From Candidatus Kerfeldbacteria bacterium (GTDB lineage: Bacteria; Patescibacteriota; Patescibacteriia; UBA9570; XYC2-FULL-38-9), in the NCBI GenBank assembly GCA_016182555.1, contig JACPGJ010000006.1:1-53289 (forward strand): a stretch of 53,289 nucleotides of DNA, in the 5' to 3' direction. Below are positions 5,973 through 49,082 of this stretch, piece after piece (position 1 is the stretch's first letter; every line of letters starts with the position of its first letter). The translations under genes and the position numbers were made by a program. Under the pieces are notes generated by a model. The model made no database searches. It saw nothing but the letters and a program-made list of their open reading frames with translations, and was not told the DNA's origin.

Positions 5973-6780
5973 GACCGCTGAATACACGATAAGCATCACA
6001 AACCAAAACTGATATTTTTTCACACATTCATAATTGAATGTTCGACCAGTTGAGGCTCATCAACCGAAGTTGAGTCCTCATCTTCTCCCTAGAAAGGAGG
6101 TGATCCACCCACAGCTTCCGCTACGGGTGCCTTGTTACGACTTCATCCTTGTCACCAGTCCTACCTTCGTCCTTTCTTACTGAAAGGCCTTCGGGTATTA
6201 CCGGCTTCCCTGATGTGACGGGCGGTGTGTACAAGACCCGAGAACGTATTCACCGCGCCATGGCTGATACGCGGTTACTAGCGATTCCAACTTCATGAGG
6301 GCGAGTTGCAGCCCTCAATCCGAACTGGGGGAAGGTTTGATGGGATTTGCTCCACCTTACGGTTTGGCGTCCCATTGTTACTTCCCATTGTAGTACGTGT
6401 GTCGCCCCGGTCATAAGGGACATGCTGATTTGACGTCATCCCCACCTTCCTCCCTGTTGTCCAGGGCAGTTTGGTATGACACGTAGTAACATACCATAGG
6501 GGTTGCGCTCGTTAACGGACTTAACCGTACACCTCAAGGCTCGAGCTGACGACAACCATGCAGCACCTGTCTTAGCGCTCCCTTGCGGGCACCCCCCCGT
6601 TTCCGAGAGGTTCGCTAGATGTCAAGACCTGGTAAGGTTCTTCGTTTGTTGTCGATCCCCGTCAATTCCTTTGAGTTTTAAGCTTGCGCTCGTACTCCCC
6701 AGGCGGGATGCTTAACGTGTTAACTTCATGATACCGGGGGGGTCGACTCCCCCAATACCTAGCATCCATCGTTTACGGCG

Positions 6781-6816
<36 letters not shown>

Positions 6817-7072
6817 CGCTTTCGCTCGTGTAGTGTCAGGTGCGTCCAAGTAAGTTGCTTTCGCCATCGGTGTTCCTGCTGATATTAACGCATTTAACTG
6901 CTACACCAGCAATTCCACTTACCCTTTCCGACCTCTAGTTGAGTAGTTTCAAGCACGGATCCGAAGTTAAGCTTCGGGCTTTCATGCCTGACTTACACAA
7001 CCACCGTTGAGCTCTTTACGCCCAGTAAATCCGGATAACGCTTGGGGCCTTCGTATTACCGCTGCTGCTGGC

Positions 7073-7999
7073 CACTAAAATTGATTTTTAGATCTATGTG
7101 GACTATATCACCTTCCATAATTATGGAGGCTCGGCGTCTGATAGAAGTTTAATTCCTGAATATCAGGTACCTTCTATCTCACCCTTACGGGTTCAGTCTC
7201 TGAGGGGTCAAGATGTTTAAATAATGGGAGCTTATACGCAAAACAACTAAGAATATACGGCTGAATGGTTTGAAGAAATTGATCTCGACCACGTTTGCCG
7301 ATATATAATTTAATATACTTTTTCCCTCGTGAAGAAGGAGATTGGATTGACGATTCAATTGAAAATGTATTCCAGAGTACTGTTTGGAGAGTTTTGACCT
7401 CTTTTATAGAAAAGGCATCGGTACTCATTGAAAAAGAGTAATGATATTTTTCTCTAAAATCGAGGGTTCCATCATCCATATACCAAATAGCCAGTGTGAG
7501 CGGTGATTGAAAGAGTTTGGTAATAGTAGAAGGAATAATTTTTCGACCGCCTTGGTAAAATAGTTTTTTTATAGTCGTGAATTCTTCAATATAACGAGTT
7601 CCAAAGTACCATTGATTGTTATCTTGCCGGTGCTGCGGAGGTGTTTTGACTAGGTGAGAAAATTGCTCATATAGCCAGAAAACATACTCTTTTTTTGCTG
7701 CAGTCTGCTTGATTTGCAATCGAGTGCCAATATAACCGTTATATTCTAGTGATCCATCACCAAGGAGTAATCCGATCAGTATATCTTGTTGTTGTTGCGA
7801 TAAGATATTGACCATTATTGTATCATATCCGACTTCCCTGCTGATTGTCTATCGGGATCTTGAATGAATTCAAGACGCAGCCCCATACTAGATTTCCAGC
7901 ATATAAGCCAAGTTTGCTATTCGTCTTACGACGAAAAGTCGCGCACGGTATTTTATCTACGAAATTTTATTGCTATTTGTACTGCTATGTACTTTTTTC
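7073..7999 (-). mobile_element. Group I intron at 16S position 516 (E. coli numbering), 927 nt
   Basis: Exons join as GCTAACTTCGT|GCCAGCAGC. The 5' exon ends in U and the intron ends in G. Core elements P (ATGCTGGAAA), Q (AATCAGCAGG), R (TCAGAGACT) and S (GATATAGTCC) occur in order. Confidence 0.93.
7174..7815 (-). CDS. Intron-encoded double-motif LAGLIDADG homing endonuclease
   Basis: LIGLLLGDGSL and LAIWYMDDGT motifs; ORF starts after Q and runs through R. Confidence 0.92.
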   Translation of the reverse strand: MVNILSQQQQDILIGLLLGDGSLEYNGYIGTRLQIKQTAAKKEYVFWLYEQFSHLVKTPPQHRQDNNQWYFGTRYIEEFTTIKKLFYQGGRKIIPSTITKLFQSPLTLAIWYMDDGTLDFREKYHYSFSMSTDAFSIKEVKTLQTVLWNTFSIESSIQSPSSRGKKYIKLYIGKRGRDQFLQTIQPYILSCFAYKLPLFKHLDPSETEPVRVR

Positions 8000-8124
8000 A
8001 CGAAGTTAGCAGCCCCTTATTCCTGTGGTACCATCGCAAGTTTTTCCCACAGAAAAGCAGTTTACACTCCGAAAAGCGTCTTCCTGCACGCGGCGTCGCT
8101 CCCTCAGACTTTCGTCCATTGGGG

Positions 8125-8179
<55 letters not shown>

Positions 8180-8423
8180 AGGCGGGTCATGCTCTCACAC
8201 CCGCTACCCGTCGTCGCCTTGGTGAGCTTTTACCTCACCAACTAGCTGATAGGCCAAAGGTCCCTCTCGAAGCGAAAAATCATTTACATAGGAATGTCAT
8301 ATGACCTCCTATGTCCATCGGGTATTAGCCACCGTTTCCGGTGGTTGTCCCCGTCTTCGAGGTAGGTTACCACTGTCTTACGCACCCGTTTGCCACTATA
8401 TCGTTCGACTTGCATGCCTTAGA

Positions 8424-8463
<40 letters not shown>

Positions 8464-12342: not shown

Positions 12343-15030
12343 CTATTCTTGGACTAATTCTTCCGCTTCGGTGAGTTCAACGCTGAGGATATGTGATTTA
12401 CCTTCTTTGCCAACAGTGACACCATAGAGAATATCGGCAGCGCGCATAGTGACGCGGTTATGGGTGATAATCACAATTTGTGTTTTGTGGCTGAGCTCCG
12501 AAATAATGGCTGCGAGTTTTTCTGAATTTTCTTCATCTAATGCTGCTTCAACTTCATCGAGCACGACAAATGGAGATGGATTGTGTGCAATAATTGCGCA
12601 GAGCAGCGCAATAGAGATAAGCGATTTCTCTCCGCCAGAAAGAGCAGTCACATTCGTGATTTTTTTCCCTGCGGGCGATGCCATAACATCAATGCCCGAA
12701 ATGACTTTTTGTCTCTTCTTCTTTTTGCCAATCAGTTCGCGTTCTTTTTCTTGTTGAATACTTTCTGTGGCGCCATCAGACACTACGGTATCAGTCGCAT
12801 CAACGTTTTCTTCTTCAGTATCGGTGAGCATTAATAATTTTGCTGCGCCTCCACCAAAGAGCACCGTGAAATATTTTTGGAAATGTTCATTGATCCGTTT
12901 AAAGTTTTTTTGGAATTGTGCATGAATGGTTTTATCTAATTCATCAATGATTTTTTCGAGTGAAATAATTGCCGTAGAAAGATCGGTTGTTTGTTTTTGT
13001 AAGAAATCAAAGCGTTCTTTGGTTTCTTCATATTCTTTCATCATCTCTGGGTCAATGCTACCGATGGATTCCAATTGGCGACTGAGTGAAGCCATCTTTT
13101 CTTCAGCGGCATGGCGTGCAGTCAATGGTTCGCCGGTGTAATGATAAATGGCGTCAATAGATTCACTTGGCAATGCTCGCGTAATGGTATTTTGTACATC
13201 TTCTCGGCGTGTTTCTATTCGAGCAATATGAATTTCAATACTATTGGCTTGTTGGCGGATAGCGGTGAGTTTGCGCTGCAGTGTACGAATATCGCTTTGA
13301 ATACTCACTAAACGCGTTTTCTTTTCTTCTTCTTCTTGGTTGAACTGGTCAATGTTCGCGCGAACCGCATTCAATTTTGTATCGTCGTGTGCAATCTGTC
13401 CTTCTAATTCGTTGAGTGTTTCATGTTGACGTTTGATTTGGTCTTGTGCTTCGTTACTTTCTTTTTCTGCACTGGCAGCCGTGATATCAGATTGAATGGT
13501 TGCCAGTTCGTCTTCACCGCGGCGAATTTGCGTATGCAGCATCTGTACTTTTGCACGACAAGATTCAATACTCACTCGCAGTTCATTCAGTTGGTGTTGA
13601 GCGGTGTCGCGTTCTTGCACTAATCGTTCCAACAGTTGTTCCTGATGTTTCATTTCTACACGTAGTGCTTCCACGGCGTCTTTTTCTTCTGCATGTAGGC
13701 GATCCATAAATTCGGCAAATTGTTGTGTAAGGCGTTTGCCATGTGACTGGACACTTTTGAATTCTTCCAGCGATTTTGTTTGCAGTAATTGGCGCAAGAA
13801 ATCTTGTTGTTGTGCAAATAAATTTTGTAGTTCGGTTTGAATTTCGGGAATCGTCATCGCATGTGATCGTGTTTCAATCTGTTCTTTCAATTTCAAAATA
13901 TTGTATTCTTGTTCACGAAATTCATTCTTGAGCGATTCCACATTTTTTTCGGCACGCGCGAGTTCGTTTTGTTCACGGTGCATCTGCTCTTCTAATAATT
14001 GTACGCTGCCAGCTTGCTCTTGAATGTCTTTCAAAATTTCATCTTCTTTGCGTTTCATCCATACGAGGCTGAGTTCCCCTTGTTTTTGATGCTCTAATTC
14101 TAACTTGCCTTTTAATACGGCTTGTTCTTTTAATAAAAAACTTTTGTGTTCGAGCAGCTCATTAAACTGTTGTTGGAGTTGTTGATAGCGTTCTCCACGG
14201 GATGCTTCTTGCGAAATAGCGTCGCTTGCTGTTTGTGCGGTAGCAAGGTCTGATTCTAATTGTTGTGTTGTCGTTTGTTGTTGCGCCAGCTCTGTTTTGA
14301 GTGTGTGATGCTCCGCGGTTAATTCGTTCCACAGTGAACCATAGTATTGAATTTGGAGTGCGCGTAATTCTGTTTCTAATTTTTCCCGTTTTTCTAAGCG
14401 TTTCACTTGGCGCGTCAATGATTGTAAATGTGGTTCAATTTCGGTCAACAATACTTCGCCTTGTACCAAGTGTTCTTCAGTGCGGATCAATTTATTTATG
14501 GCTTGGTCGCGTTTAATTTGAAATTCACGCACGCCGGTGGCTTCGTCAAGAAATATTTTTCTCTCTTGAGGTGTGGCATTCAGGAAATGGGTAATCATGC
14601 CTTGGCCAATAACTGCATAAGATTTTTGACCAAACTTGGCTTGGGCAAGCATGAGGATAATATCTTGCAAACGCACCTGCGCATTATTCACCCGATATTC
14701 CGATTCGCCGCTGCGGAAAATTTTACGAGAGATGACCACCTCATTGTAATCGAGCGGAAGTTTATGGTCGCGGTTATCGAGGTGGAGTTCGACTTGTGCC
14801 ATGCCCAGACGAGAGAGTTGATCGGAACCGCCAAAAATAACATCATGCGAAGATTTGCTGCGCAGTGTTTTCATGCTCTGTTCTCCTAATACCCAGCGAA
14901 TGGCATCGGCGATATTAGATTTTCCTGAACCATTTGGCCCAACAATAGCCGTGAAGTTTTTTGGGAATTCAAAAACAGTTTTATCGGCAAAAGATTTAAA
15001 CCCGTGGAGAACCAGTTTATCTAAACGCAT
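12343..15030 (-). CDS. smc: SMC-family chromosome segregation ATPase (short form)
   Basis: GFKSFA, GPNGSGKSN, long coiled coil, LSGGEKS, VLDEVEAALD, IITH. Confidence 0.92.
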   Translation of the reverse strand: MRLDKLVLHGFKSFADKTVFEFPKNFTAIVGPNGSGKSNIADAIRWVLGEQSMKTLRSKSSHDVIFGGSDQLSRLGMAQVELHLDNRDHKLPLDYNEVVISRKIFRSGESEYRVNNAQVRLQDIILMLAQAKFGQKSYAVIGQGMITHFLNATPQERKIFLDEATGVREFQIKRDQAINKLIRTEEHLVQGEVLLTEIEPHLQSLTRQVKRLEKREKLETELRALQIQYYGSLWNELTAEHHTLKTELAQQQTTTQQLESDLATAQTASDAISQEASRGERYQQLQQQFNELLEHKSFLLKEQAVLKGKLELEHQKQGELSLVWMKRKEDEILKDIQEQAGSVQLLEEQMHREQNELARAEKNVESLKNEFREQEYNILKLKEQIETRSHAMTIPEIQTELQNLFAQQQDFLRQLLQTKSLEEFKSVQSHGKRLTQQFAEFMDRLHAEEKDAVEALRVEMKHQEQLLERLVQERDTAQHQLNELRVSIESCRAKVQMLHTQIRRGEDELATIQSDITAASAEKESNEAQDQIKRQHETLNELEGQIAHDDTKLNAVRANIDQFNQEEEEKKTRLVSIQSDIRTLQRKLTAIRQQANSIEIHIARIETRREDVQNTITRALPSESIDAIYHYTGEPLTARHAAEEKMASLSRQLESIGSIDPEMMKEYEETKERFDFLQKQTTDLSTAIISLEKIIDELDKTIHAQFQKNFKRINEHFQKYFTVLFGGGAAKLLMLTDTEEENVDATDTVVSDGATESIQQEKERELIGKKKKRQKVISGIDVMASPAGKKITNVTALSGGEKSLISIALLCAIIAHNPSPFVVLDEVEAALDEENSEKLAAIISELSHKTQIVIITHNRVTMRAADILYGVTVGKEGKSHILSVELTEAEELVQE

Positions 15031-15093
15031 AGGCTGGATTATACCAGAATTATCCTGAAAATGGTATACTTTAACAAGACTATTTTATCATGG

Positions 15094-15181
15094 TCCTTCC
15101 ATGGTCCTGTGCGATCATTCTTCGAGAGCTTCGTTTTGCTTCGCAAATACGTGCTCTCTCCAGAATGAACGCGAAGGCCAT
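15094..15181 (+). repeat. Structured palindromic element, copy A
   Basis: Long imperfect hairpin; its 50-nt core is 45/50 identical to 48983-49069 (minus strand). Confidence 0.8.
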
Positions 15182-15200
15182 ACTCCTATAACTCTATTTT

Positions 15201-16544
15201 ATGCATACATACAAAAAAATTTGGTTTGCCTTAGTGCTGTTGAGTGCAGTTGTTTTTCCATCATTCGTTTTTGCAGCCGGGCCACAGATTACGATAGATA
15301 ATACCGAAGACGCTGTAACCATTTTGAAAAATCCAGACAGTTTTTCTGGAGAAACGTTTATATTGTCCTATGACGGCGCTCAAGATATTCAGGCGATGCG
15401 GATCAATCGTGATGACGTGTATTACGTCGTGACGGCAGTCAAAAAAGCCAATGCCATTCGTTTACGATTATATACTAATGCCGGAGAGAAATTAGCTGGG
15501 CGTTTGGTATTTAGTAAAACGGATGAACAAGCATTCGGTGCAATGAAGTTTGATGTGCTGACGAATAATGAACAAGTGGCTTTTCGCGTTCGCACGGTGA
15601 AAATGAACGCCAGCGGCCGCCCAACACGTTTTTTGCGTAAAACATTTTATATTCGCCCCACCAGCGACCATACGATGAAGCGGCGTACCGCTGGTGTGAA
15701 AAAAATTGAGTATCCGAATTTTTCCGATAAAACAAATGAAGAAGGTGGGCTGGCATTATTGAACTATCAACGTCTTGCTTCGGGCATTTTGCCAGTACAG
15801 CGCACCACGGAATTGGATTCTGGTTGCGCCTTGCATGTAGAGTATTTACGGTTGAATGACACGCTTTCTCACTTTGAGGAAGAAGGAAACCCGGGCTATA
15901 CCGAAGAAGGGAGTGCTGCGGGTCAAGCGAGTAATTTAGCTGGCATGTACAACAATACGAGCATGATTAAAGCCATTGGTATTTGGACCACTGCGATTTA
16001 TCACCGTTTGCCGATGTTCAATAATGGTTTGCAGTCGGTGGGTTGGGCGGTGTCCAGTACGAGTGCCAGCAATTATAATTATGCCTGTATTAATGTGGGG
16101 ACGAGTAAAGATTATGGCGAGCTGACCCAAAGCGGTACGGAAAATAATTTTACCTATTACGATCCCTATAACCATGACCCCATTCCCTACCCAGGGGTTG
16201 GACAAACCCATATTCCAACGACCTTTGGTACGGGTGAATCTCCGGATCCGTTGGAAGATTTTAACGGAACGTATCCAGCAGGTGAACCGATTTCGTTGAT
16301 ATTTTCTGACAATGATACGGTCTCAGATATGGCAATGACTCTCACTGATGCCAGTGGGAATTCCCTATCTGGTTATTTCCGTGCACCAGATGATCCTGAA
16401 GACCCAAATAGCATTTACCAAGGTAATAGCGTAACATTTATTGCTGAAGAGCCGCTGGATTCTGCCATGACCTATACAGTGAATGTGACCGGAAAAGTGA
16501 ATGATACTTCCTACTCAAAAGAGTGGAGTTTCACCACGGAGTAG
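15201..16544 (+). CDS. Secreted CAP (SCP) domain protein with C-terminal Ig-like domain
   Basis: Signal peptide; LNYQRLASGI...LDSGCALHVEYL...SHFE...WTTAIYHR; C-terminal PLDSAMTYTV...WSFTT. Confidence 0.8.
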   Translation: MHTYKKIWFALVLLSAVVFPSFVFAAGPQITIDNTEDAVTILKNPDSFSGETFILSYDGAQDIQAMRINRDDVYYVVTAVKKANAIRLRLYTNAGEKLAGRLVFSKTDEQAFGAMKFDVLTNNEQVAFRVRTVKMNASGRPTRFLRKTFYIRPTSDHTMKRRTAGVKKIEYPNFSDKTNEEGGLALLNYQRLASGILPVQRTTELDSGCALHVEYLRLNDTLSHFEEEGNPGYTEEGSAAGQASNLAGMYNNTSMIKAIGIWTTAIYHRLPMFNNGLQSVGWAVSSTSASNYNYACINVGTSKDYGELTQSGTENNFTYYDPYNHDPIPYPGVGQTHIPTTFGTGESPDPLEDFNGTYPAGEPISLIFSDNDTVSDMAMTLTDASGNSLSGYFRAPDDPEDPNSIYQGNSVTFIAEEPLDSAMTYTVNVTGKVNDTSYSKEWSFTTE

Positions 16545-16570: not shown

Positions 16571-17281
16571 TTATTCGTGTTCGTAGGTGAGCCAATTTTT
16601 TTTATGGAGAGCAGCTTCTGCCGCTTTCATTTGTGCTTCTTGTTTTGATGTGCCTTCCCCTGTGGCAATGAGCTCATCATGCAGGTATACACCGACGATA
16701 AATATTTTGTTGTGGTCTGGGCCAGATTCTTTCTGTACACGGTAATTTGGTGTTGCGCCAACTAATTCTTGTGCCGCTTCTTGGAAGCGACTTTTGGCAT
16801 CCAGGTACAATTTGTATTTTAAAATGTGCGGCAACTTTGAAATAATATTTTTGTGAATAAATGTCGCGGCAATGTCATATTCTTTATCCAAATAAATAGA
16901 ACCGATAATTGCTTCCACCGCATTCGCTAAAATAGATTGTCGTGCTTTGGTGTTGCTATCTTTGGCTTCACCGCGGGATAAATACAAGAATTGTTCAATT
17001 TCGAGTTGTTCCGCAATAATGGAAAGCATTTGTGAATTCACTAAACTCGCTCGCCAATTCGTTAACTCCCCTTCTGGATTCGGGTAGGTGGTAAAGAGAT
17101 GTTCCGTGACGACCAATTCTAATACGGCATCACCTAAAAATTCTAAGCGCTCATTGTGGTCGAGTGGAAAATCGCGGTGTTCATTTAAATAGGAGCGGTG
17201 AACCAGGGCTTGGCGCAACAAATTTGGATTACTGAATTTAACCTCTAGGGTTTTTTCAAGCTTTGCAATATTTTTATCCAT
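16571..17281 (-). CDS. rnc: Ribonuclease III
   Basis: ALVHRSY, NERLEFLGDAVL and a C-terminal dsRBD (DAKSRFQE...GTSKQEAQMKAA); start placed at MDKNI. Confidence 0.97.
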   Translation of the reverse strand: MDKNIAKLEKTLEVKFSNPNLLRQALVHRSYLNEHRDFPLDHNERLEFLGDAVLELVVTEHLFTTYPNPEGELTNWRASLVNSQMLSIIAEQLEIEQFLYLSRGEAKDSNTKARQSILANAVEAIIGSIYLDKEYDIAATFIHKNIISKLPHILKYKLYLDAKSRFQEAAQELVGATPNYRVQKESGPDHNKIFIVGVYLHDELIATGEGTSKQEAQMKAAEAALHKKNWLTYEHE

Positions 17282-17292
17282 AGGTGTGTATG

Positions 17293-17341
17293 GATGTCGG
17301 ACGTCGCCGGTGTTGTCATAACACCTCCAACGTTCAACATC
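17293..17341 (-). promoter_or_regulatory. Long RNA hairpin in the rnc 5' leader (candidate autoregulatory RNase III site)
   Basis: GAUGUUGAACGUUG-GA-GGUGUU-augac-AACACC-GG-CGACGUCCGACAUC; the G-U pairs form on the mRNA strand. Confidence 0.6.
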
Positions 17342-17363
17342 AATCAATGAATTATTAATTTTT

Positions 17364-17831
17364 TTATGATGGTGTCGTGCCAAGAGTTTTTCGTTCCCCG
17401 TCTTCATCAAGCTCACCATTTTTTTCCATATCGCGGAAGATAGAACCAAGGACGCCATTCACAAATTTCCCAGACGATTCTCCGCCAAATGATTTGCCTA
17501 ATTCAATCGATTCGTTAATGGCAACTTTTGGTGGGATATCGGTATCCATTTTCAATTCATAAATACCGATACGCAATACATTGCGATCGATATTGGTGAT
17601 CTGTTCTAGCGGCCAATCTGGTGCGTAGTGTTGAATCGTTTCGTTAATCGTTTGCACGTGGGCAATAATGCCATTCAACAGTTTTTTGGTAAACTCCGCA
17701 TCATCAAATTTTTCCGCGAATTCGGCTAAATTGTGTTCCAAAATACTTTCCAGTGGCTTTGTGCCATTGTAGAAATCCCATTCAAAGAGTGTTTGGAGGG
17801 CAATGATGCGTCCAAGGTGGCGATTTGACAT
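17364..17831 (-). CDS. nusB: Transcription antitermination factor NusB
   Basis: [51 protein letters not shown]. Confidence 0.97.
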
Positions 17832-18082: not shown

Positions 18083-18170
18083 ATGTTGATTTTATTATTC
18101 CTGTCCACGGACTATACAGGATACATCCATTTTTTGCAAGTGTCGCCTGAGATAGTGTATGATACAGCAC

Positions 18171-18902
18171 ATGGTGAACCATTACCTTATAGCCAATTGG
18201 AAAATGCATAAATTGTCAGCTGAAGCGCTGCAGTTTATTGCTGGGTTTAGCTCTACCAGCCTCCCAGACAATACGGCAGTTATTATTGCCCCTTCTTTTC
18301 CATTATTACCCGTTATGCGTACGGCAATAGAAGGAGCTCGACTACCGGTCATGCTTGCAGCTCAAAATATGTTCTACGAAGAACATGGGGCATTTACAGG
18401 TGAAGTTTCCCCGCAGCAAATTTATGATGCCGGCGCCAAATATGTCATTATTGGGCATTCTGAGCGTCGAACATTGATGAATGAGCACTATAATATGCTT
18501 TCCCAAAAGTTGAAAGCGGCGTTGACGGCAGAGCTTACTCCCATTTATTGTCTTGGTGAAAACCTTCAGGAACGTGAGGCCGGCCATTCAAAAGAGGTGG
18601 TTTCTGGCCAAGTACAGCAATTAGTAAAGGATTTTTCTTCTGCCGATATTCGCAAAATGATTATTGCTTATGAGCCAATATGGGCGATTGGCACCGGAAA
18701 AAGCGCTACGCCAGAGGAGGTAGAGGAAATTCATGCACTGATGGCTACTATGCTGCCACCTGGAATGCCAATGGTCTATGGTGGTTCGGTGAATGCCCAA
18801 AATGCTCAACAATTTTTACAACAGCCGCATATTTCCGGTTTGCTTGTTGGTTCGGCGAGCCTTGACATTCAAGAATTTCAGCGAATTCTAGCAATTTTTT
18901 AG
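18171..18902 (+). CDS. tpiA: Triosephosphate isomerase
   Basis: IANWKMH, GAFTGEVS, IIGHSERR, AYEPIWAIGTG, YGGSV. Confidence 0.97.
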   Translation: MVNHYLIANWKMHKLSAEALQFIAGFSSTSLPDNTAVIIAPSFPLLPVMRTAIEGARLPVMLAAQNMFYEEHGAFTGEVSPQQIYDAGAKYVIIGHSERRTLMNEHYNMLSQKLKAALTAELTPIYCLGENLQEREAGHSKEVVSGQVQQLVKDFSSADIRKMIIAYEPIWAIGTGKSATPEEVEEIHALMATMLPPGMPMVYGGSVNAQNAQQFLQQPHISGLLVGSASLDIQEFQRILAIF

Positions 18903-23574: not shown

Positions 23575-26500
23575 TTAGATCAATGTGACGGAAGCCACAA
23601 TATCTTTTGCTTCCTTGAAGCGCATCAATCGTACACCTTGCGTGGCTCGACCAAGAACACTAACGGATTTTAGCGGCAAGCGAATCACTTGTCCTTGAAC
23701 AGAGATAATCACTAAATCTCGCTCCTCTTCAGTAGCTTGGATGGCAAACGCCGAGATAATGCTTCCAGTTTTCGGCGTAATATTCGCTGTTTTGATACCC
23801 GAGCCGCCGCGGTTTTGTATTTTGTATTGTGACAGAGTACTTCGTTTTCCAAATCCGTTCGACATAATCACTACTAACTGATCATTTTTTTCTCCGCCGT
23901 TGCTGACAATGCTCATACCGCTAATACTGCTCTTTTCTTTCAGTTTCATGCCGCGTACACCTGCAGCGGTCCGGCCCATGGCCCGAACATCTTTTTCGTT
24001 GAAGCGAATGGCTTGGCCATTGTCAGACACCAGAATGATATGATCTTTTCCGGTCGATGGTTGAACCCACATGAGTTGATCGCCATCTTTAATTTTGAGC
24101 GCGATCAAACCAGAGCGGCGGACATTGCTAAAATCAGCCAATTCCGTTTTCTTAATGACTCCATGCTGCGTCACCATGACTAAATATTTTTTGTCCCCTA
24201 AATTTTCTAGGCTCAGCGTGGCGGAGAGCTTTTCTTCCGGCCCGAGTTGTAAGAAATTGACTATCGCTTGTCCTTTTGCGGTGCGCGAAGATGGTGGAAC
24301 TTCATAGGCTTTCAATTGGAACACACGACCACGGGAGGTAAAGAATAATAAATCGGCATGGGTATTAGTCATGAACATATCAGAAACCGAATCTTCTTCT
24401 TTTGTTGTTAAGCCAATAACGCCTTTCCCCCCACGGTGTTGTTTTTTGAATGTATCTGGTGGTAAGCGTTTAATATATCCATCGGTCGTGATCATCACCA
24501 CGGTTTGTTCTTTCGGAATTAAGTCTTCTTGCGAGAATTCACCAACGGGGTGTGGCACCACTTGTGTCCGGCGATTGCTGCCGTAATTGGTGTTGATTTC
24601 AAGAATTTCATTTTTCACCACGTTCAAAATATTTTTACGTGAAGAGAGAATCGTTTTCAGTTCTTTAATCAATTTTTGTTTTTCTTTCAATTCTTCTTCT
24701 ACGCGTAAGCGTTCTAAGTTGGCCAACTGTTGCAATTTCATTTCGAGAATAGCCACTGCTTGGCGTTCCGTCATGCGGAATTTTTTGATCAAATTTGTTT
24801 TTGCATCATTGCGATCTTTCGATTTTTTAATCGTGTTGATCACATCATTAATTTTTTCGAGCGCCATGACTAAGCCTTCCAAAATATGTGCACGGTCTTC
24901 GGCTTTGCGTAAATCAAATTCGGTGCGGCGTTTCACCACCACCTCACGGTGTTTTACAAATTCTTCTAATACCATTTTCAGGGTGAGAACGCGTGGTTGA
25001 ATGCTATCGACTAATGCGAGCATGTTCACGTGGAATGTTTCTTGTAGTTGCGTCAGTTTATAGAGTTGGTTCAATACTTTTTTTGGATACGCCCCTTTTT
25101 TTAGTTCGACAACTACCCGCACGCCGTCACGGTCAGATTCATCACGTAAATCTTTAATTTGGTCAATTTTTTTATCACGCACCAGCAGCGCAATTTTTTC
25201 AATCAACGTCGCTTTGTTCACCATGTACGGAATTTCGGTAATCAAAATTTGGTGCGCGCCACCATTGCCTTCGACAATTTCTGCGCGGCCTCGCATGACA
25301 ATTGGCCCACGTCCGGTGGCATACGTTTGCAAAATATCTTTTCTATTAAAAATTTGTCCGCCGGTTGGAAAATCGGGTCCTTTGACATGCTCCATCAAAT
25401 CTTCCACGGTCACTTCCGGGTTTTCAATCAGCATCATGAGTGCATCACACAACTCGCTTAAGTTATGGGGCGGAATACTCGTCGCCATACCCACGGCAAT
25501 ACCCACGGTACCATTCACTAATAGTTGCGGGAATTTGGCCGGCAACACTTTTGGTTCTTGGTGGACACCATCATAGTTTGGCATGAAGTCGACAGTTTCT
25601 CGGTCGATGTCGAGCAACATTTCTTCTGCAATTTTTGTGAGCTTGGCTTCAGTATTGTGGTTAATGAATCCATTGGCTGTAAATGAATGGCACACACTAT
25701 CCACTCGTACGGAATATACTTCCGTTTCATTTTGCATCTCTTCAATCGTTTGAATACGGTCAAAAAGGTACTCGTGTTTCAGTAGCCATTCAATGAGTTT
25801 GCAGTCTTGTGGAGAGAAATATTTTTTGAAACGAGTATAATTTTTTTCTAACGCATTGTAGCGATCGAAATTATTTCTGCTCACAAAATCTTGCGTGTAT
25901 CGCGCACGAAGATATGCGTTCAAAAATGGAATGAAATCATTTTTGCTCAACCGAGCATCATTGACTTCATGAATACGGTGCAGCACCGCTTTTTTTCGCG
26001 TAGAATAAAAACCGATCTCTTTTTCAAAACGGAGAATATTTGGTCGCCCACTGATGCACAGTTTATAGCACTCATTCCGTTTATCCTGTGTTGGCGCGGT
26101 GGTCACAATACCAAAATTCAGTAAGACGGTTTTTAATTCTGAAATCAACTGTGCACTTTTGGAGCAATACACCAGTTCAACCACCTGTCCACCATGGCGT
26201 TTATCGGTATGAAAAACCACCGACCCATCACTTTCGAATAAGCCACGTAAAAAAGCGCTAACACTTTTTTTTGTGGATTGCAGTACAGAAAATGGAATCG
26301 TTTTTTTATCTGCACGAACATTATGCAACCCAGCGACCTCTAATAAGTCAACAGCCGTTTTTTGATAAAAATCAAATTCGAGGCAATCACCTTTTATTGT
26401 GCGTTCATACACCCGTGTTCCAGCAAATTCTGCCAGCAGCGCGTCACGAACCGTTTCGTAATATTGCCGGTCTTTATTGTTAAAAATAATTTTGCCTTGA

Positions 26501-27375
26501 TGAAAACTGCCTTCGGCAACCAATGCGCCCATCGCAAATGCTAAACGAGGGGTCATTTTTTTTGGTAAACGAATCGGTGTGGTGCGTACACGTTTTGGTA
26601 GACGCAGCGTGGTTAAATCAAAATCTGTTTTGGCAAACAGCGAACCCCGACGATTGATGAGTGCATAATCTTGTGTGGTTATATCTTTCAACAATTTCCA
26701 GTTCAACGTTGGGAAGCCAAATTCATTTAACGACCAACACATCACGGGGTGGTTTTGAGAGCCCATGAGGCGGTAGCCATGTTGGGTGGTGATGCGCACA
26801 ACGCGATGCTTTCCAGAATTGAAAAATCGTGACGCACGAACGGTTTTATTTTTATAATTCACTACAGAAAGGTTCACCGCTGTTTCTTCTTTGGAAGAAA
26901 TAGAAGCGATAGGAATCATTCCGCGGTCACTCAAGAGCAAGGTGTCTCCACTGACACAATAGCGCATGGCGGCAGCCGAATCTCCATCCATTGAACCAAA
27001 GTTTCCTTGGCCGTTCACGAGTGGATTACGCATGGCAAAATCTTGTGCCATACGCACCATGGAATCATACACTGCCACATCTCCATGTGGATGATATTTA
27101 CCGAGTACTTCACCGACTACAGTAGCAGATTTACGAAATTTGGCGTTGGCTTTTAAACCGATATCCCACATGGCATACAAAATACGACGGTGTACCGGTT
27201 TCATGCCGTCGCGAACATCTGGTAATGCGCGTGTCACAATGACGGACATGGCATAGTCAATATAGGAATTGGACATTTCTTCAACAATCGGACGAGGATT
27301 GACGTGCCCAATATTATTTTTCCCCGGTTCAACGGTGTTGCTGCGCGCTTGCGGTGAAGAATTTTTTTTTGCCAT
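23575..27375 (-). CDS. gyrA: DNA gyrase subunit A, intein-containing
   Basis: [28 protein letters not shown]|intein|TEAK, GyrA-box QHRGGKG, C-terminal pinwheel repeats. Confidence 0.98.
25654..26958 (-). mobile_element. Intein (435 aa) with LAGLIDADG endonuclease in GyrA
   Basis: Starts CVSGDT and ends [10 protein letters not shown] followed by Thr; endonuclease motifs MGALVAEGS and [11 protein letters not shown]. Confidence 0.95.
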
Positions 27376-29648: not shown

Positions 29649-29852
29649 AATTATCAATTATTGTTAACCGAAACGTGACCACGTTTGCGGCGCTGGTAGT
29701 CCAGCTGTTGTAAATAGAGAATGCCATGATATCAGAAAATATTTTTCCTGGCAAGTCAAGGGTCATGCCAGACATGCTAGCGCTTGATTATCGTGTGGGT
29801 TTGCCGTATAATGCGTTCACAAGAATTAATGAAATTATTTCAGAAAACGATC

Positions 29853-32800
29853 ATGCCCAAAAAACAACAACAACCAAAAAATCTTTTTCGTCATTTCTTA
29901 GGTTTTTTGCTCATCTTTATTATCATCGCTTCGGTGTTATCGCTCTACAATTCGCCGTTTCATAAACCAGAAAAAGTGCCGTTTAATACGGTTGTGGAGT
30001 ATATTCAGCAAGGAAAAGTGCAGGACATTCAGGTCATTGAAGGCTCTCAGTTGAAAGTGACGTTGAATGACGAAGCGAGTACGGTGGTTGAATCGACCAA
30101 AGAAAGTAATGAAGCATTGCCAACGCTGCTGACAGCATACGGCATCACGCCAGAGCAACTCGCGAAAACCAGTATTTCTGTGGAAGGTACTAGTGGGTGG
30201 AAATTTTTTGTGGTGAATATTTTACCTATTCTGTTGCCAGCAGTTTTCATTATCTTCTTTTTCTGGTTGATGATGCGCCAAGTGCAAGGAACGAACAACC
30301 GCGCTATGATGTTTGGCCAAAATACAAGCAAATTGGTTGACCCAGAACGCAAAAATAAAACCACCTTTAAAGATGTAGCTGGAGCCACTGAAGCCAAAGA
30401 AGAGTTGACCGAAATTGTGGATTTTCTGAAAAACCCGAAAAAATATACTTCTATTGGTGCTCGTATTCCGAAAGGCGTGTTGCTGATGGGGCCTCCGGGA
30501 ACGGGAAAGTGTATTACCGGTGATTCTCTTGTGCTGACCAATAAAGGCATGATGCGTATTCAAGATGTGCCAAAATATTTCTTTGTCGATCCAGTGACCG
30601 ATAAAGTGCATGGTGCACAGGTTCCTGCCGTGGACCCAGCAGATTTATCAACCGCAACCGTTCCTGCCAGCCATTGGTATGATTTGGGTATGCAGCAAAC
30701 ATTGCGTATTCGCACCCAGCTCGGCTATGAGCTGGAAGGTACCCCAGAACATCCAGTATTGGTGTTGGACACGGGTGGCAGCATTCAATTTCGCCGTCTA
30801 GATGAATTAAAAGAAGAAGACAAGGTGGTCATCAAATATGGCACGAAACAATTTGGTTATTCAACGGCCATTCCTGATCAAGAAACGGCTTATATCATCG
30901 GTTTGCTGATTGGTGATGGATGCGTTACAGTTCGAGATCGACTCATCTTCTCCACTAGCGACGCAGAATTGTTACAGAAATTCAGTTCGTTTTTTGCAGA
31001 ACGGTTTGGATATGCAGTAAAGAAAACGAGCGGTCCGTATGATTGGATGGTTTCTGATCAAGCCATTTCAAGATTGTTTAGACAAGAGTATGGATTGGGT
31101 GCGTTGTATGCAAAAGACAAGGTAATTCCGGATACGATTTTACAAAGTCCAGAACATATTGTTCGTGCATTTTTGCAAGGGTTGTTTGATACTGATGGCA
31201 CAGCAACGAAAGATGGACAAGTGCAATTTTCCAGCGCAAGCAAAACGTTGGCAAAACAAGTGGGGTGTTTGCTGTTGAATTTTGGAGTAGTGAATCGAGT
31301 GCATGAACGTCAATTGAAAGTGAATGGTAAGAAATATTTCTATCTGGATATCACCGGTGATTTTTTGCGTGCGTTCTCTGAAGAAATTGGTTTTCAATTA
31401 ACACGAAAACAGCAGCGAGTGAATGAATATGTCGTCACGCATGAAACAAATTCGAATACAAATTTGTTGTATCATCAACAAACGGTATTTTCAGCTATTT
31501 GGAAAAAATTGGAATTGGCTGGCGTGGCGGTATATTCTACATTTGAACAGGCAAGCGGAGGAATGAATTATAAAAATTTGATTCGATATGTAAGTGGAGA
31601 GCGGAATCCCTCAGTGACCACGGCACGGAATTTTACAACTGCGGTGATGGAACTCGATTCAACAATGAATACACTGCCAGCATTCAACCAGTTAAATCGT
31701 TTAGCCAACGATAATTTCTATTTTACACCAGTGACCAAAATTACGGTGGGAGAAGCACGGGTGTATGATTTTACCGTTCCGCAGCGTCATTCATTTATTT
31801 CTAATGGGTTGGTGTCGCATAATACATTACTCGCTCGTGCAGTGGCAGGTGAAGCGAATGTGCCATTCTTTCATATTTCTGGTTCAGAATTCGTGGAAAT
31901 GTTTGTGGGCGTGGGTGCTAGCCGCGTGCGTGATTTTTTCCGTAAAGCCCAGAAAGCCGCACCAGCAATTTTATTCATTGATGAAATTGATGCCGTTGGG
32001 CGCCAGCGTGGAACAGGTTTGGGTGGTTCGCACGATGAACGTGAACAAACATTGAATCAAATTCTGACTGAAATGGATGGTTTTGATAACGAAACAAATG
32101 TGATTGTCATTGCTGCGACCAATCGCCCAGACGTTCTGGATCCGGCATTGTTGCGCCCTGGTCGGTTTGACCGCCGAGTCATGTTAGACCTGCCAGACAT
32201 TCGTGAGCGTGAAGAAATTTTGCATGTGCATGTCAAGAATAAAATGTTGCAAGAAGACGTGAAACTGAAAGTGCTGGCTCAGCGTACCACCGGTTTTTCT
32301 GGTGCGGATTTGATGAATTTGCTCAACGAAGCTGCCATTTTTGCGGCGCGTGAAAACCACAAAAAAGTATCTATGGAGAATTGTTTGGAATCGATTGATA
32401 AAGTATTACTTGGCCCACAACGCAAGAGTGTGAAGTATTCTGATCGTGAGAAATCTATTACGGCGTATCATGAAGCTGGCCATGCATTGGTAGCGCACAT
32501 GTTGCCCGATTCTGACCCGGTGCACAAAATTACGATTATCCCCCGTGGTCGCGCTGGTGGATATACATTGAAGTTGCCAGAAGATGATAAAAAGTTGCAT
32601 TCGAAGAAAGAATTGCTTGCCGATATTGCGGTTGCATTGGGTGGACATGCGGCAGAGCAGTTTCAGTTTGATGACATTACGACCGGTGCGTCGAGTGATT
32701 TAAGCAAAGCCACGAAACTCGCACGGAGTTTAGTGATGCATTACGGTATGAGTGAGAAAATGGGGCCACGAACATTTGGGGCAACGAGTGAGATGGTGTT

Positions 32801-33059
32801 TTTGGGCAAAGAAATTCACGAGCAGCGTGATTATAGTGAACAAACCGCGCAAGAGATTGATGCTGAAATTGCTTCTATTATTTCTACACAGTATACGGTG
32901 GTAAAAGAATTGATGAAAAAATATACACACAAACTCGATTTGATCGCTTCGAAACTGGTGGAAGTGGAAACCATTGAACGAGAAGCATTTGAAGCGTTGC
33001 TTGCCGATGTTCCGCCTGTCGGTAGCGCGGCTTCTCCTGTTGCCGAAGCAGCGGCATAG
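29853..33059 (+). CDS. ftsH: ATP-dependent zinc metalloprotease FtsH, intein-containing
   Basis: Two TM helices, TFKDVAG, GPPGTGK|intein|[30 protein letters not shown]. Confidence 0.97.
30510..31823 (+). mobile_element. Intein (438 aa) with LAGLIDADG endonuclease in the FtsH Walker A motif
   Basis: Starts CITGDS; block B GTPEHP; IGLLIGDGC and [10 protein letters not shown]; ends VYDFTV...[10 protein letters not shown] followed by Thr. Confidence 0.95.
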
Positions 33060-34084: not shown

Positions 34085-34158
34085 GCTCCCGTAGCTCAGT
34101 TGGTTAGAGCACCGAGCTTATATCTCGGCGGCCTCAGGTTCAAGTCCTGACGGGAGTA
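34085..34158 (+). tRNA. tRNA-Ile(TAT)
   Basis: GCTCCCG/CGGGAGT acceptor; CCGAG-CT-TAT-AT-CTCGG anticodon arm; GTTCAAG T-loop. Confidence 0.9.
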
Positions 34159-34171
34159 CAGATAATAGGTA

Positions 34172-34202
34172 TAAAAAATCACCCCTGCGCGGGGTGGTTT
34201 TT
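34172..34202 (+). terminator. Terminator after tRNA-Ile(TAT)
   Basis: AAAAAATCACCCC-tgcgc-GGGGTGGTTTTT. Confidence 0.8.
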
Positions 34203-34391
34203 ATTCTTCTGAATATCACTGCAGTGGTGTACAGAAGAATAACGAATGACGAGCCTACAGCCTCCTCTCTATTGGTTCGTCATTCACGCCTTGAGGCCTT
34301 AGAAGCAGTCGCTCTTGACAAAGTGAATGAAATGCTGAATATATATACGTCGACTCAACGATGAGTTTGACTTTTATGGCCCCCAACCCTC

Positions 34392-45065: not shown

Positions 45066-46631
45066 TTAACCTGGCTGGAATGCGTAACCGCGGCCCGGTG
45101 CTGCATTTTCATGGGAAGACATTGCACGAGCAACATAGGTCACATGCTCTTGCGCTTCCTGAACAGTGATTGAGGTAAAACAATCGTACCACGCCTCTTC
45201 ACATTCCCAGGGAACAACGAGTGTATCTTTATACTGATGAAATCGTTGTTCCCAAGTGCTGCGTGAGATCTCTTTTCCTGCAATCGCTGCAAGCTGCTGA
45301 GCATAGTTGTAATCGTGGAACACTTGACTTGAAGGTGACCCGTGATTGAGCCAGTAGATATCAGTTTCACACTGATCCAACTGTATGCCTAACGCAGAAC
45401 GAGCCCATTCAAAGAATTCGAGTGAACGTTGGCAGGATTCGTGTGTTTCTCCGGATGAACCGAAGATCAGCGAAAAGTGCAGGTGGGCACCGCTTGAGGC
45501 AATATGGCGTACTGCCTGGCGGTTTTCTTCAATGCGTGAACCACCCGATTGCGTCGCTTTCACAACACCGCGTGCGAGCATCCGTTCATCGCCAGAGTCC
45601 ATCCCGACATTCACCAGAAGCCGACCACCAGTCAGTGACAGCCAGTCTTCTAAGTATTCTGGATGTCGAGATATCCCCCATGCCCGGCCGTACAACATCA
45701 GTCCTTCGCTGAAGTGTGCACCCAAACTTTGCAGTGTATGGCACACCGAACGCATTTCATACGCGGAGTCGGTTACATTGAAGAGATAATTTATCCCAAA
45801 TGCTTCATACACCTCCAGCAGTTCTTTGAGATATTCCTGCGTGGGAAGCCGTATGTCCGCCACACCAGCGATGGTGCAGTAGGAACAGACATCGGCTGTG
45901 CCCGTACGGGTGCATCCTTGCGCGAATAGTGAGAGTGCATTCCGTACCTGCGCAGTGGTGATGTGTTTGTGGCCGAATACAGTACGATAGTTGTGCCACA
46001 CCTTCTGCCAATACTCGTCTCCGAACAGATCGAGCTTGGGTACCACGAACACATCATGCGGATCGAACTTTCCCTGTTGTCGAAGTTGTGCACGCATTTC
46101 TCGTTCGGCTTGAATAACCACGCGCTCGTTGGACGGAGTGAATCCACCAGGAACAACAGCCACTCCTGGAATGTTGAGTTTGTTCAGATTAACCGATCCG
46201 ACTTGCCGCACAAATTCGCGCACAGCTGTGAGGCTGTTGCTGGTGAATACGGCATCAATTGGATGATCTGGAAGTCGAAGCAATTGATCGACTCTGAAAA
46301 TTGCGGAATCGTTGCCGGCAATGATAATGCGTGCACCAAGATTTTTTGCTTGTCGCGCTAGCTCAATTCCTCGCTCCATGCCAGTAGCAACCAGACTCAA
46401 GCCGACCATGTCACCTGGCTGGACGATCCGTTCCAGATCAACATAGCCTTGAACGAGTTCGTCGTGCAGAACAACCTCCCACCCTTCTTCATGTACAACT
46501 GTGCCGACCGTAAGTATACCCAGGTGAGGCCACAGCCGGTACTGGGTGGTATCCCCAGAGAGAGTGTTGATGGTATGCTCGACATTGATCAGAACCAGTC
46601 GACTATTTTGAATATGCTGTGAAAGAGCCAT
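45066..46631 (-). CDS. B12-binding-domain radical SAM protein
   Basis: N-terminal PHLGILTVGT / VGLS / IIAG cobalamin-domain pattern; QGC-X8-CSYC; VGMDSGDERML; LIFGSSGETHESC. Confidence 0.78.
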   Translation of the reverse strand: MALSQHIQNSRLVLINVEHTINTLSGDTTQYRLWPHLGILTVGTVVHEEGWEVVLHDELVQGYVDLERIVQPGDMVGLSLVATGMERGIELARQAKNLGARIIIAGNDSAIFRVDQLLRLPDHPIDAVFTSNSLTAVREFVRQVGSVNLNKLNIPGVAVVPGGFTPSNERVVIQAEREMRAQLRQQGKFDPHDVFVVPKLDLFGDEYWQKVWHNYRTVFGHKHITTAQVRNALSLFAQGCTRTGTADVCSYCTIAGVADIRLPTQEYLKELLEVYEAFGINYLFNVTDSAYEMRSVCHTLQSLGAHFSEGLMLYGRAWGISRHPEYLEDWLSLTGGRLLVNVGMDSGDERMLARGVVKATQSGGSRIEENRQAVRHIASSGAHLHFSLIFGSSGETHESCQRSLEFFEWARSALGIQLDQCETDIYWLNHGSPSSQVFHDYNYAQQLAAIAGKEISRSTWEQRFHQYKDTLVVPWECEEAWYDCFTSITVQEAQEHVTYVARAMSSHENAAPGRGYAFQPG

Positions 46632-47659: not shown

Positions 47660-48970
47660 TCACGATGCATTTTTTTCCTCTATCGCGAATAGTTTTTGTA
47701 CAAACAGGAGACTCAACCAAAACCAGAAGAGGATTGAGAGATCGTTTTTGAAATAGGGCACGTCAACTAGTCCATAGACAAGAATGCTGATAAAGACGCC
47801 AAATAATATGAGGCCCAGTGGTTTTTTTGCGTGAATGGTTTTCGCAATAGTGATGAAACTATAGATCAATATCATCATGATCCAGATCAAACCAAGCAGC
47901 CCAAGCTGTACCCAAAAATCGAAAAAGATATTATGCGCATATTCTAATAATTCAATATGTGAAGGTAGGCGGTAGATATCATAGAGGATGGGAAATCCCG
48001 CAAGACCGGAACCGACAAACGGATGGGCACGAAGCAAGTGCAGCGTTCCTGTCCATAGTGCTAGGCGAACATCTCCAGAGACATCTTGAAACAGTAACAC
48101 GTGGCGAATAGGTGGAAGTGTCAACGCCAGCATTAGGCCAACTGTGCCAATAGTGAGGGTTGCCCACCGCCATTTGGTGAAGAGTAGCATGCAGCCGGTC
48201 GCAGCGATCACCGCAACAATAGCACCGTCAGATCGTGAAACAATTAACGCTCCAAAACAGAGGATGATCATACACACCATAGCAAGATTTTTTTTTCTTC
48301 CGGTAAAAAAACCACTCAGGAGTGTCCCGATGAGCATAGTCAGGATAGGTGCAATGTAGAGCCCAACAGCATTTGGGTAACCATAGAAAGCGGTTGCTCG
48401 GCGATTGGGAAGGTCGTGCCACGGTGCCGGAATATGCCAGCCAGTGAAATATTGAAACACGGCCACCGCAGCGATGATTGTTGCCGAAAGCCCAAGTGCG
48501 CTGAGGCAGAGCGCCACGTCTTTTCGTGTACGAATAGACTGTGTGCAGATGATAAAAAAGAGAATGGGTTCAATGATATAGGCTTTCCATATCCCTGCTC
48601 CTGCCCGTATATCAGGAGTCACGAGAAGACCAATGACTGAAGCAATAAGTAATAAGGCTATATTTCCATACCAGAATTTGTTGCTCGCGTCCTTCAACAG
48701 GCTTAGGGGGGTAGACCACCGTGTCATGGTGAGCCTGTCGAACCATGAAGGGATGAACGCGCGGAAGGGTGTAGCGAGCACGATACTTTTTATGATATGT
48801 ATGAAAAAAAGAACTATAATCATCACTTCAAGCAATGTGAATGGAATGCCAAATATGGAAAAACGAATGAGGTAACTGGGAAGTAATAGTAAAACAAAAG
48901 CAACGCCCCATACTCGATTTTTGATAGTAAGAACAATAGTAATAATGCTGAAAAGTATGGCGATGATCAT
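47660..48970 (-). CDS. O-antigen ligase-like (Wzy_C) membrane protein
   Basis: RATAFYGYPNAVG, SRSDGA, RLALW...PFVGSG, YAHNIFFDFWVQLGLLG. Confidence 0.88.
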   Translation of the reverse strand: MIIAILFSIITIVLTIKNRVWGVAFVLLLLPSYLIRFSIFGIPFTLLEVMIIVLFFIHIIKSIVLATPFRAFIPSWFDRLTMTRWSTPLSLLKDASNKFWYGNIALLLIASVIGLLVTPDIRAGAGIWKAYIIEPILFFIICTQSIRTRKDVALCLSALGLSATIIAAVAVFQYFTGWHIPAPWHDLPNRRATAFYGYPNAVGLYIAPILTMLIGTLLSGFFTGRKKNLAMVCMIILCFGALIVSRSDGAIVAVIAATGCMLLFTKWRWATLTIGTVGLMLALTLPPIRHVLLFQDVSGDVRLALWTGTLHLLRAHPFVGSGLAGFPILYDIYRLPSHIELLEYAHNIFFDFWVQLGLLGLIWIMMILIYSFITIAKTIHAKKPLGLILFGVFISILVYGLVDVPYFKNDLSILFWFWLSLLFVQKLFAIEEKNAS

Positions 48971-48982
48971 GTTATGAGTGTA

Positions 48983-49069
48983 TCCGGCTGTAGCGGCAAT
49001 TCTGGAGAAAGCACGGCTTTGCGAAGCAAAACGAAGCTTTCAAAGAATTGGCGCGAAAGGCCGGAAGGA
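48983..49069 (-). repeat. Structured palindromic element, copy B
   Basis: Long hairpin between two ligase genes; homologous to 15094-15181. Confidence 0.8.
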
Positions 49070-49082
49070 TAAACATATCTAT

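Follow-up and report, generated by a model that had tools for sequence, protein, structure and literature searches.

A hairpin-forming repeat at two gene starts of a Candidatus Kerfeldbacteria contig, a candidate non-autonomous insertion element

Does a hairpin that recurs directly upstream of unrelated genes serve those genes as an RNA signal, or is it a DNA element that has landed there? This question is raised by two copies of an imperfect palindrome in contig JACPGJ010000006.1 of Candidatus Kerfeldbacteria bacterium. The stretch of 53,289 nucleotides (nt) analyzed here, termed the window, is the whole contig and comprises all of the DNA considered from the host genome. A preliminary description of this DNA left two readings side by side, an undescribed cis-regulatory RNA and a REP-like, mobile hairpin of single-stranded DNA (ssDNA). 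The explanation favored here, with modest confidence, is that of a palindromic, non-autonomous insertion element with the habits of Rickettsia palindromic elements (RPEs) or MITEs, whose transcription along with the downstream gene is incidental.

The two copies contain 50-mers that lie at 15117-15166 on the plus strand (copy A) and at 49049-49000 on the minus strand (copy B). As first described, these are identical at 45 of 50 positions and share an exact 21-mer, the core of the element (15127-15147 in A, 49018-49038 in B). A 20-mer search allowing up to three mismatches returned only A and B from the window, and the chance expectation is zero, as none of 100 dinucleotide-preserving shuffles contained a match. 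Nor was a third copy in the window found with R1, a model built from A and B, which scores the two at 104 and 104.6 bits, respectively.

The similarity between the copies exceeds the 50-mers, spanning a 5ʹ tail that ends in TCCTTCC, the hairpin, and a 3ʹ tail of the form ATAC...ATAAC. The whole element is 105 bp long in copy A (15089-15193, plus strand) and 112 bp in copy B (48971-49082, minus strand), is non-coding, and is built around an imperfect palindrome of about 82 nt. The hairpin comprises 81 nt with 32 pairs in the minimum-energy fold of A (15101-15181) and 83 nt with 29 pairs in B (48983-49065); the structure anticipated by the preliminary description is thus present, at a larger size than was noted. 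At the tip, the core forms a 5-bp stem closed by a UUC triloop, and the opposite strand carries the predicted apex GCGAAGC. The TCCTTCC motif, also correctly placed before both copies (15094-15100 in A, 49063-49069 in B), is conserved, and it is unpaired in A. By direct reading, the 8 nt ATGGTCCT occur twice at the 5ʹ end of copy A (15090-15097 and 15101-15108). The conserved 3ʹ tail measures 13 nt. In A (15180-15192), it is unpaired except for 15180-15181, which close the hairpin, and 8 nt separate it from the next start codon; in B (48971-48983), it abuts the ATG at 48970, with 0 nt between. Comparison of A with B places the highest conservation at the tip and the lowest at the base of the stem. 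A small open reading frame (ORF) was considered and rejected: direct reading finds a frame open through copy A and a different one open through copy B, and there is therefore no conserved peptide.

Both copies fold stably, with energies of -38.8 kcal/mol (z -5.30) for A and -38.6 kcal/mol (z -5.56) for B, and none of 200 shuffles folded as stably as either copy. To follow the pairing between copies, a 29-pair structure was drawn by hand on the two-sequence alignment. Standard pairs fill 57 of its 58 cells; five of the 29 pairs have changed on both sides, among them the outer-stem pairs at alignment columns 2-82 and 3-81, and one more has changed from C-G to U-G. Column shuffles matched the observed pairing values in 16 of 500 trials, and slid controls paired at 36-47%. 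For two sequences, this is suggestive of compensatory change, more of it in the outer stems, and the earlier remark that the differences preserve pairing was well founded.

Pairing of this kind brings in the first rival explanation, namely that the element is a cis-acting RNA hairpin that, with its conserved tip and tails, would bind a protein or undergo RNase III cleavage and in this way set the expression or stability of envelope-gene mRNAs. The five two-sided changes suit such an RNA, as do the conservation of the tails, which are unpaired in the folds of both copies, and the equally unpaired start-codon regions. Each sense-strand fold also includes one G-U pair that would be an A-C mismatch on the opposite strand. 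A gene for RNase III (16571-17458; Pfam) is present in the window. The strength of the covariation is limited, however, by the number of sequences and by the 16 shuffles that scored as high. Moreover, the hairpin alone is about as stable on one strand as on the other, with sense and antisense energies of -37.3 and -37.0 kcal/mol for A and -36.4 and -40.0 kcal/mol for B, so that folding by itself makes no case for a sense-strand RNA.

The location of the copies also fits a role in the transcript. Copy A precedes a gene on the plus strand (15201-16544) that encodes a secreted protein with CAP/SCP and Big_5 domains (Pfam), and the SMC gene (12343-15030, minus strand) lies divergently upstream. 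Copy B precedes a minus-strand gene (47660-48970) for a Wzy_C (O-antigen-ligase-like) membrane protein. Each copy is therefore in sense orientation, as had been reported, and stands 0-10 nt before the start codon of a gene for an envelope or secreted protein. The orientation can also be set against the direction of replication. Cumulative GC skew rises monotonically over the window with no change of sign, and A lies on the plus strand and B on the minus strand; orientation thus follows transcription, not replication. With two copies, this tips the balance slightly toward selection on the transcript or a regulatory role, and slightly away from an ssDNA mechanism tied to the replication strand, as for REP/RAYT or IS200/IS605. 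The similarity between A and B ends at the start codons, and the downstream proteins, CAP/SCP and Wzy_C, are unrelated, which identifies a dispersed element rather than a duplicated gene start.

The flanks of the copies bear signs of insertion. Copy A sits between two 9-nt direct repeats of CTATTTTAT, a candidate target-site duplication. The left repeat is at 15080-15088 and the right one at 15194-15202 on the plus strand, where it takes in the first two bases of the ATG of the CAP-domain gene. A shared run of at least 9 nt between equally spaced 30-nt flanks arose in 85 of 20,000 random placements in the window (0.4%; P ~0.004). A flanking repeat of this kind is typical of insertion and argues against a purely regulatory origin. 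Upstream of it, direct reading finds the extended -10-like box TGGTATACT (15062-15070, plus strand), in agreement with the promoter proposed in the preliminary description; the consensus promoter scan made no call here because there is no -35 match. Were copy A and one 9-nt repeat removed, 16 nt would separate the TATACT box from the ATG, a somewhat greater distance than the 2-10 nt found at other starts in the window.

The two Wzy_C genes on either side of copy B are poorly related and belong to a glycan cluster, all on one strand, with the order Wzx, GT4 glycosyltransferase, Wzy, element, Wzy. Copy B extends from the stop codon of the upstream Wzy_C gene to the ATG of the downstream one, filling the 112-nt gap base for base, while the neighboring cistrons are 5 and 7 nt apart; this is the sole long gap in a tightly packed operon. 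Direct reading places an ATGA at either end of the gap on the minus strand, one with the upstream stop codon (49083-49086) and one with the downstream start codon (48967-48970). Removal of copy B and one ATGA would give a 4-nt stop/start overlap of the two Wzy_C genes. Overlaps of the ATGA type are a common arrangement of coupled genes.

Other strong hairpins occur in the window. About 200 nt downstream of copy B, the Wzy_C ORF itself includes a GC-rich 100-nt hairpin (48681-48780; residues ~64-97) with a GC fraction of 0.59 and a folding energy of -38.4 kcal/mol. It encodes a variable hydrophilic loop at least 13 residues longer than that of most of 60 aligned homologues and is possibly an in-frame palindromic insert; a second copy was not found in the window or in the 97 loci described below. 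Another long hairpin, at 45881-45980, ranks third in stability among the 100-nt folds of the window (-44.7 kcal/mol). It falls within a B12-binding/radical SAM ORF (45066-46631), at residues ~217-250, close to where the radical SAM domain begins. Additionally, two adjacent hairpins with stems of 21 and 12 bp follow directly after tRNA-Ile(TAT) (34085-34159) at 34201-34300.

If the element were a dedicated 5ʹ regulator, its relatives should be found in comparable positions. The exact 18-nt tip was scanned over 185,579 species genomes, one per species, yielding 99 matches in 97 stretches (loci L001-L097), with the window's own genome not among them. Our own arithmetic, which assumes equal base use, puts the number of chance matches to an 18-mer at about 17 when both strands of 596 Gb are counted. 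Automatic classing of the 99 matches by the pairs that enclose the tip proved too noisy, as coding matches scored like true hairpins, and a motif rule was used in its place. Coding matches common to orthologues include five Acinetobacter loci and four Woeseiaceae-type loci.

The two matches closest in build to the window copies are both within protein-coding genes. In L037, a Paceibacterota metagenome-assembled genome (MAG), the 18-mer tips a hairpin of ~114 nt inside a CTP synthase ORF, and in L044 it tips one of ~69 nt inside a GatB ORF. The 24 nt around the tip are identical between the two, both hairpins lie between two Pfam domains, and the reading frame through them is also the same, so that each encodes LRFASQKS. 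At this position, the CTP synthase has 36 residues compared with 6 in the solved structure 3nva_A, and GatB has 64 compared with 30 in 3al0_B, which marks the hairpins as extra, translated in-frame inserts of about 100 nt. Neither has a clear strand preference for folding that would single out an RNA, at -66.9 (sense) and -66.7 (antisense) kcal/mol for L037 and -26.7 and -34.0 kcal/mol for L044. Hairpins with the same tip, in sense orientation, inside the coding sequences of CTP synthase and GatB argue against a dedicated regulator of the 5ʹ untranslated region (UTR). Taken with the repeat at copy A, the lack of strand preference and the lack of an Rfam family, they make the cis-acting RNA doubtful in spite of its sense, start-proximal position and kept pairing.

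A survey of 120 Paceibacterota CTP synthases, consisting of the L037 protein (P0001) and 119 others listed (P0004-P0122), shows how the linker before the GATase domain varies. It has a minimal length of 14 residues in 33 of the 120, 15-24 residues in 25 and 25-64 residues in 62. An insert of the LRFA type is present in three, which are mutual nearest relatives at 77-80% identity, and many of the inserts are unrelated and of low complexity. Some others may echo, at the peptide level, motifs of further palindromic repeats. Judged from these proteins, the inter-domain linker of CTP synthase looks like a hot spot for in-frame insertion in Paceibacterota, a place where inserts have landed repeatedly.

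Like L037 and L044, the window copies measure about 100 nt in total, carry the common 18-19-nt tip, and have arms that are complementary to each other and unrelated in sequence between elements. In addition, arm motifs recur at similar distances from the tip: a TCCTT-type motif in the 5ʹ arm and, by direct reading, the 8-mer ACGCGAAG in the 3ʹ arm of both copy A and L037. On this comparison, the window copies are likely to be related to the L037 and L044 elements. An alignment of all four with MAFFT and RNAalifold was uninformative; the arms remained unaligned, and the 5-bp tip stem alone was recovered. Two further matches come from Saccharibacteria MAGs (L042, 1995-2040; L071, ~2001-2030). 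There the 18-mer caps a fully paired 17-bp hairpin with a T run behind it, resembling a terminator in L042; in L071 its position is directly before the dnaA start codon.

The largest group of matches is of another kind. A multi-copy palindrome with C-rich and G-rich ends from Omnitrophota, Planctomycetota and other MAGs accounts for 30 of the 99 matches at 28 loci (L001, L006-L008, L011, L014, L019, L022, L023, L027, L028, L030, L035, L039/L058, L050, L054, L057, L059, L070, L072, L075, L078, L081, L082, L091, L093, L097), six of which belong to the single MAG MHGA01. Here the 18-mer is located in one arm, not at the tip. At L070 and L075, this palindrome lies inside an RNase P RNA gene called by Rfam (194.9 and 187.8 bits). 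All of these hairpins could belong to one cross-phylum superfamily with a fixed 18-nt core, variable arms and GCGAAGC on the other strand, mobilized by an enzyme that reads the tip and not the ends. Its members would occupy 5ʹ spacers in the window; in Patescibacteria-type MAGs they would sit in protein linkers (CTP synthase, GatB), and in Omnitrophota in the peripheral helices of RNase P RNA. Mobility of this kind would differ from that of classical MITEs and would explain why conservation declines from the tip down the stem. Such a superfamily is an unlikely reading.

The same features of the tip can be read in terms of an ssDNA hairpin of the REP/RAYT or IS200/IS605 (PATE) type, whose GCGAAGC-tipped strand would be moved by an HUH (Y1) transposase encoded elsewhere. 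The strand opposite the genes does carry this tip at both copies, and GCGNAGC is described as an extraordinarily stable DNA mini-hairpin (PMC13037366). The constancy of the tip over variable arms is as expected if a protein reads tip and shape, and the palindrome that includes the 18-mer is multi-copy in Omnitrophota and Planctomycetota. Nonetheless, transposition of the IS200/IS605 type leaves no target duplication, in conflict with the 9-nt repeat at copy A, and the two copies lie on opposite strands under a GC skew of constant sign, which is contrary to a replication-strand rule. The linked HUH gene (RAYT or TnpA) that the preliminary description suggested looking for is absent from the 38 window ORFs. 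REPs are 20-40 bp long and have a GTAG or CGTC tag (PMC3733652); the window element is ~100 nt with a hairpin of more than 80 nt, and direct reading finds no such tag common to A and B. An intergenic or intercistronic palindrome within an operon is nevertheless also the situation of REPs and BIMEs, and copy B could likewise act as a 3ʹ-end barrier on the mRNA of the upstream cistron. Of the mobile hairpin first suggested, the idea of a mobile palindrome has thus gained support from the in-frame inserts, the 9-nt repeat and the split operon, and the specific REP/RAYT form has not; the ssDNA mechanism is quite unlikely.

A different use of the tip would be as a DNA operator, with the 13-nt palindrome at its center (TTTG, five bases, CAAA) bound by a dimeric transcription factor that controls both genes. 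The palindrome is perfect in both copies, lies upstream of genes and fits the TTTG-N5-CAAA pattern of a LexA-box search in Leptospira (PMC3789691). In that paper, however, the Leptospira gene that carries the exact 13-mer showed no UV response (PMC3789691). The match to LexA is therefore incidental, and the LexA-box reading, for which this was the sole paper found with the 13-mer, was set aside. An operator would also have no need of ~35 further base pairs of preserved complementarity around the 13-mer, and it fits poorly with the same tip inside coding sequences elsewhere or with the position of copy B within an operon rather than at a promoter. Control by such a factor is highly improbable.

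Searches of known collections returned no better candidate. With Rfam 15 at the gathering score, the whole window gave rRNA and tRNAs alone, in keeping with the earlier statement that the family was not recognized. At E ≤10, the two sites gave Flavo-1 at E 0.36 and three snoRNA-type matches at E 1.8-4.5, none of them usable. Flavo-1 RNA (RF01705) is also a hairpin-shaped motif, but the match on the plus strand of copy B reaches 16.9 bits against a gathering score of 42, runs antisense to the gene, skips 40 nt of the element and has no counterpart at copy A; it was taken as noise. Intrinsic termination was rejected as well. Both long hairpins lack a T run downstream, no terminator was called at copy A, and the scan flagged at copy B only a 7-bp tip hairpin with a poor T tail. 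Phage and plasmid collections gave matches of 22-29 nt at chance level (E ~1) alone. In a search limited to one library of open-access papers, no description of such elements in Patescibacteria, the Candidate Phyla Radiation (CPR), or of the core sequence was found. A hairpin-adapter or assembly artefact was discarded, as the arms have mismatches and bulges and the L037 and L044 genes continue in frame on both sides.

Among characterized systems, RPEs are one of the closest parallels to the element. They are hairpin-forming, dispersed elements of ~100-150 bp that lack a transposase of their own and reside both between genes and, in frame and translated, within unrelated housekeeping genes (PMC10969869). 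Likewise, the window element forms a hairpin, measures about 100 nt and is intergenic, and inserts with the same tip are found in frame in CTP synthase and GatB. Hairpins of 81 and 83 nt in elements of 105 and 112 nt agree with the stable 100-150 bp hairpin of RPEs. In-frame insertion, on the other hand, is seen in L037 and L044, whose homology to the window copies is likely, and the window copies themselves are intergenic. The element also differs in having a conserved tip with diverging arms and, at copy A, a 9-nt flanking repeat. Its host lineage is very distant, two copies were seen, and the likeness is to the description of RPEs, not to their sequence.

The Correia (NEMIS) elements of Neisseria, and further MITEs with hairpins, ERIC among them, provide a second comparison. 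According to the same source, they are small non-autonomous repeats, situated mostly just upstream of genes, co-transcribed and able to form long hairpins (PMC10969869). Such hairpins can serve as substrates of RNase III or change the stability of mRNAs (PMC10969869). The candidate target-site duplication at copy A would be a likeness to Correia elements and MITEs. In Correia elements, the duplicated target is TA. The window element departs from this pattern in that the candidate duplication is 9 nt in A with none in B, and in that no parent insertion sequence is known. Furthermore, Correia elements have conserved terminal inverted repeats, whereas the ends of the window element are its least conserved part. 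It is not classed here with the RPE or MITE families and has no known sequence relation to either.

Several observations weigh against a palindromic insertion element. Both copies have the same orientation to, and stand at the start of, genes for envelope or secreted proteins, which suits a cis-acting role, and a single 53-kb stretch of one genome yields only two copies. The flanking repeats at copy B (4 nt), L037 (4 nt) and L044 (5 nt) are not significant. No transposase, HUH, RAYT, TnpA or TnpB gene was found in the Pfam scan of the 38 window ORFs, and nothing there qualifies as a parent insertion sequence or as a transposase whose ends match the element. Terminal inverted repeats of the MITE type are lacking: the outer stems differ between A and B, the outermost tails are not mutually complementary, and the stem base is least and the tip most conserved, the reverse of a typical MITE. 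A peptide search with the L037 insert (residues 368-411) recovered just the L037 protein itself, one of 14 candidates. The homology of A and B to L037 and L044 is drawn from 18-19 shared nt, the build and a few arm motifs. Run over the window and all 97 loci, R1 scores L037 at 29 bits (E 5e-5) and the Omnitrophota palindrome L091 at 30 bits; it fails to separate L037 from unrelated palindromes and provides no proof of homology.

An insertion element nevertheless accounts best for the whole, and other selfish elements are present in the genome, including inteins in GyrA and FtsH and a LAGLIDADG gene in the 16S rRNA. The element would land in short spacers and, in other lineages, within genes, where only in-frame copies would survive. 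Copy A would have entered downstream of the -10 box, ahead of the start codon, with duplication of a 9-bp target, and copy B would have entered the ATGA stop/start overlap. The arms may be kept complementary because the hairpin, as ssDNA or RNA, is needed for the element to spread or survive; alternatively, mismatches in quasi-palindromes could be corrected arm against arm. The tip may be conserved as the site recognized by some mobilizing enzyme. After insertion, transcription would make copy A part of a 5ʹ UTR and copy B part of an intercistronic RNA, and in the transcript the stable hairpin would form with the 3ʹ tail and start codon left unpaired. RNase III cleavage, or a 3ʹ barrier that protects the upstream Wzy message, are possible effects, and any such influence on mRNA stability or processing would be a by-product rather than a purpose of the element.

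The host looks like a Patescibacteria (CPR) type genome. The nearest homologue of its triose-phosphate isomerase (18159-18902) among 5.8 billion proteins is only 50% identical, and the one named close match, at that level, is from a Patescibacteria MAG, placing the host without a close sequenced relative. The 16S rRNA gene (6093-8461, minus strand) gives two separate model matches, one to positions 9-546 and one to the rest, on either side of an insert of ~720 nt (~7183-7905). An ORF in the insert (7174-7815) encodes a LAGLIDADG_2 endonuclease, and the arrangement resembles an intron, or other insertion, in an rRNA gene that brings its own homing endonuclease. GyrA (23575-27375, minus strand) and FtsH (29784-33059, plus strand) each contain an intein, marked by Pfam matches to Intein_splicing and LAGLIDADG_3 that fall within the host domains. 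Shine-Dalgarno sequences are nearly absent from 30 gene starts in the window, although the 3ʹ end of the 16S rRNA has CCTCC, and TATAAT-like boxes lie 2-10 nt before the start codons of the SMC, phosphoribosyltransferase, S16 and TrmB-like genes. This combination suggests that leaderless mRNAs may be frequent.

If this explanation is correct, an undescribed family would be added to the small palindromic insertion elements, in an ultra-small, deeply branching bacterium with an otherwise streamlined genome. Kept base-pairing beside a gene start is not sufficient to call a regulatory RNA when the same type of hairpin is translated elsewhere as a linker insert. Such elements would inflate the apparent count of novel structured RNAs in scans of uncultivated genomes, and they would account for unusual insertions in RNase P RNA and in otherwise conserved proteins. 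Should the tip prove to be a recognition site shared across phyla, it would point to a mobilizing enzyme yet to be found.

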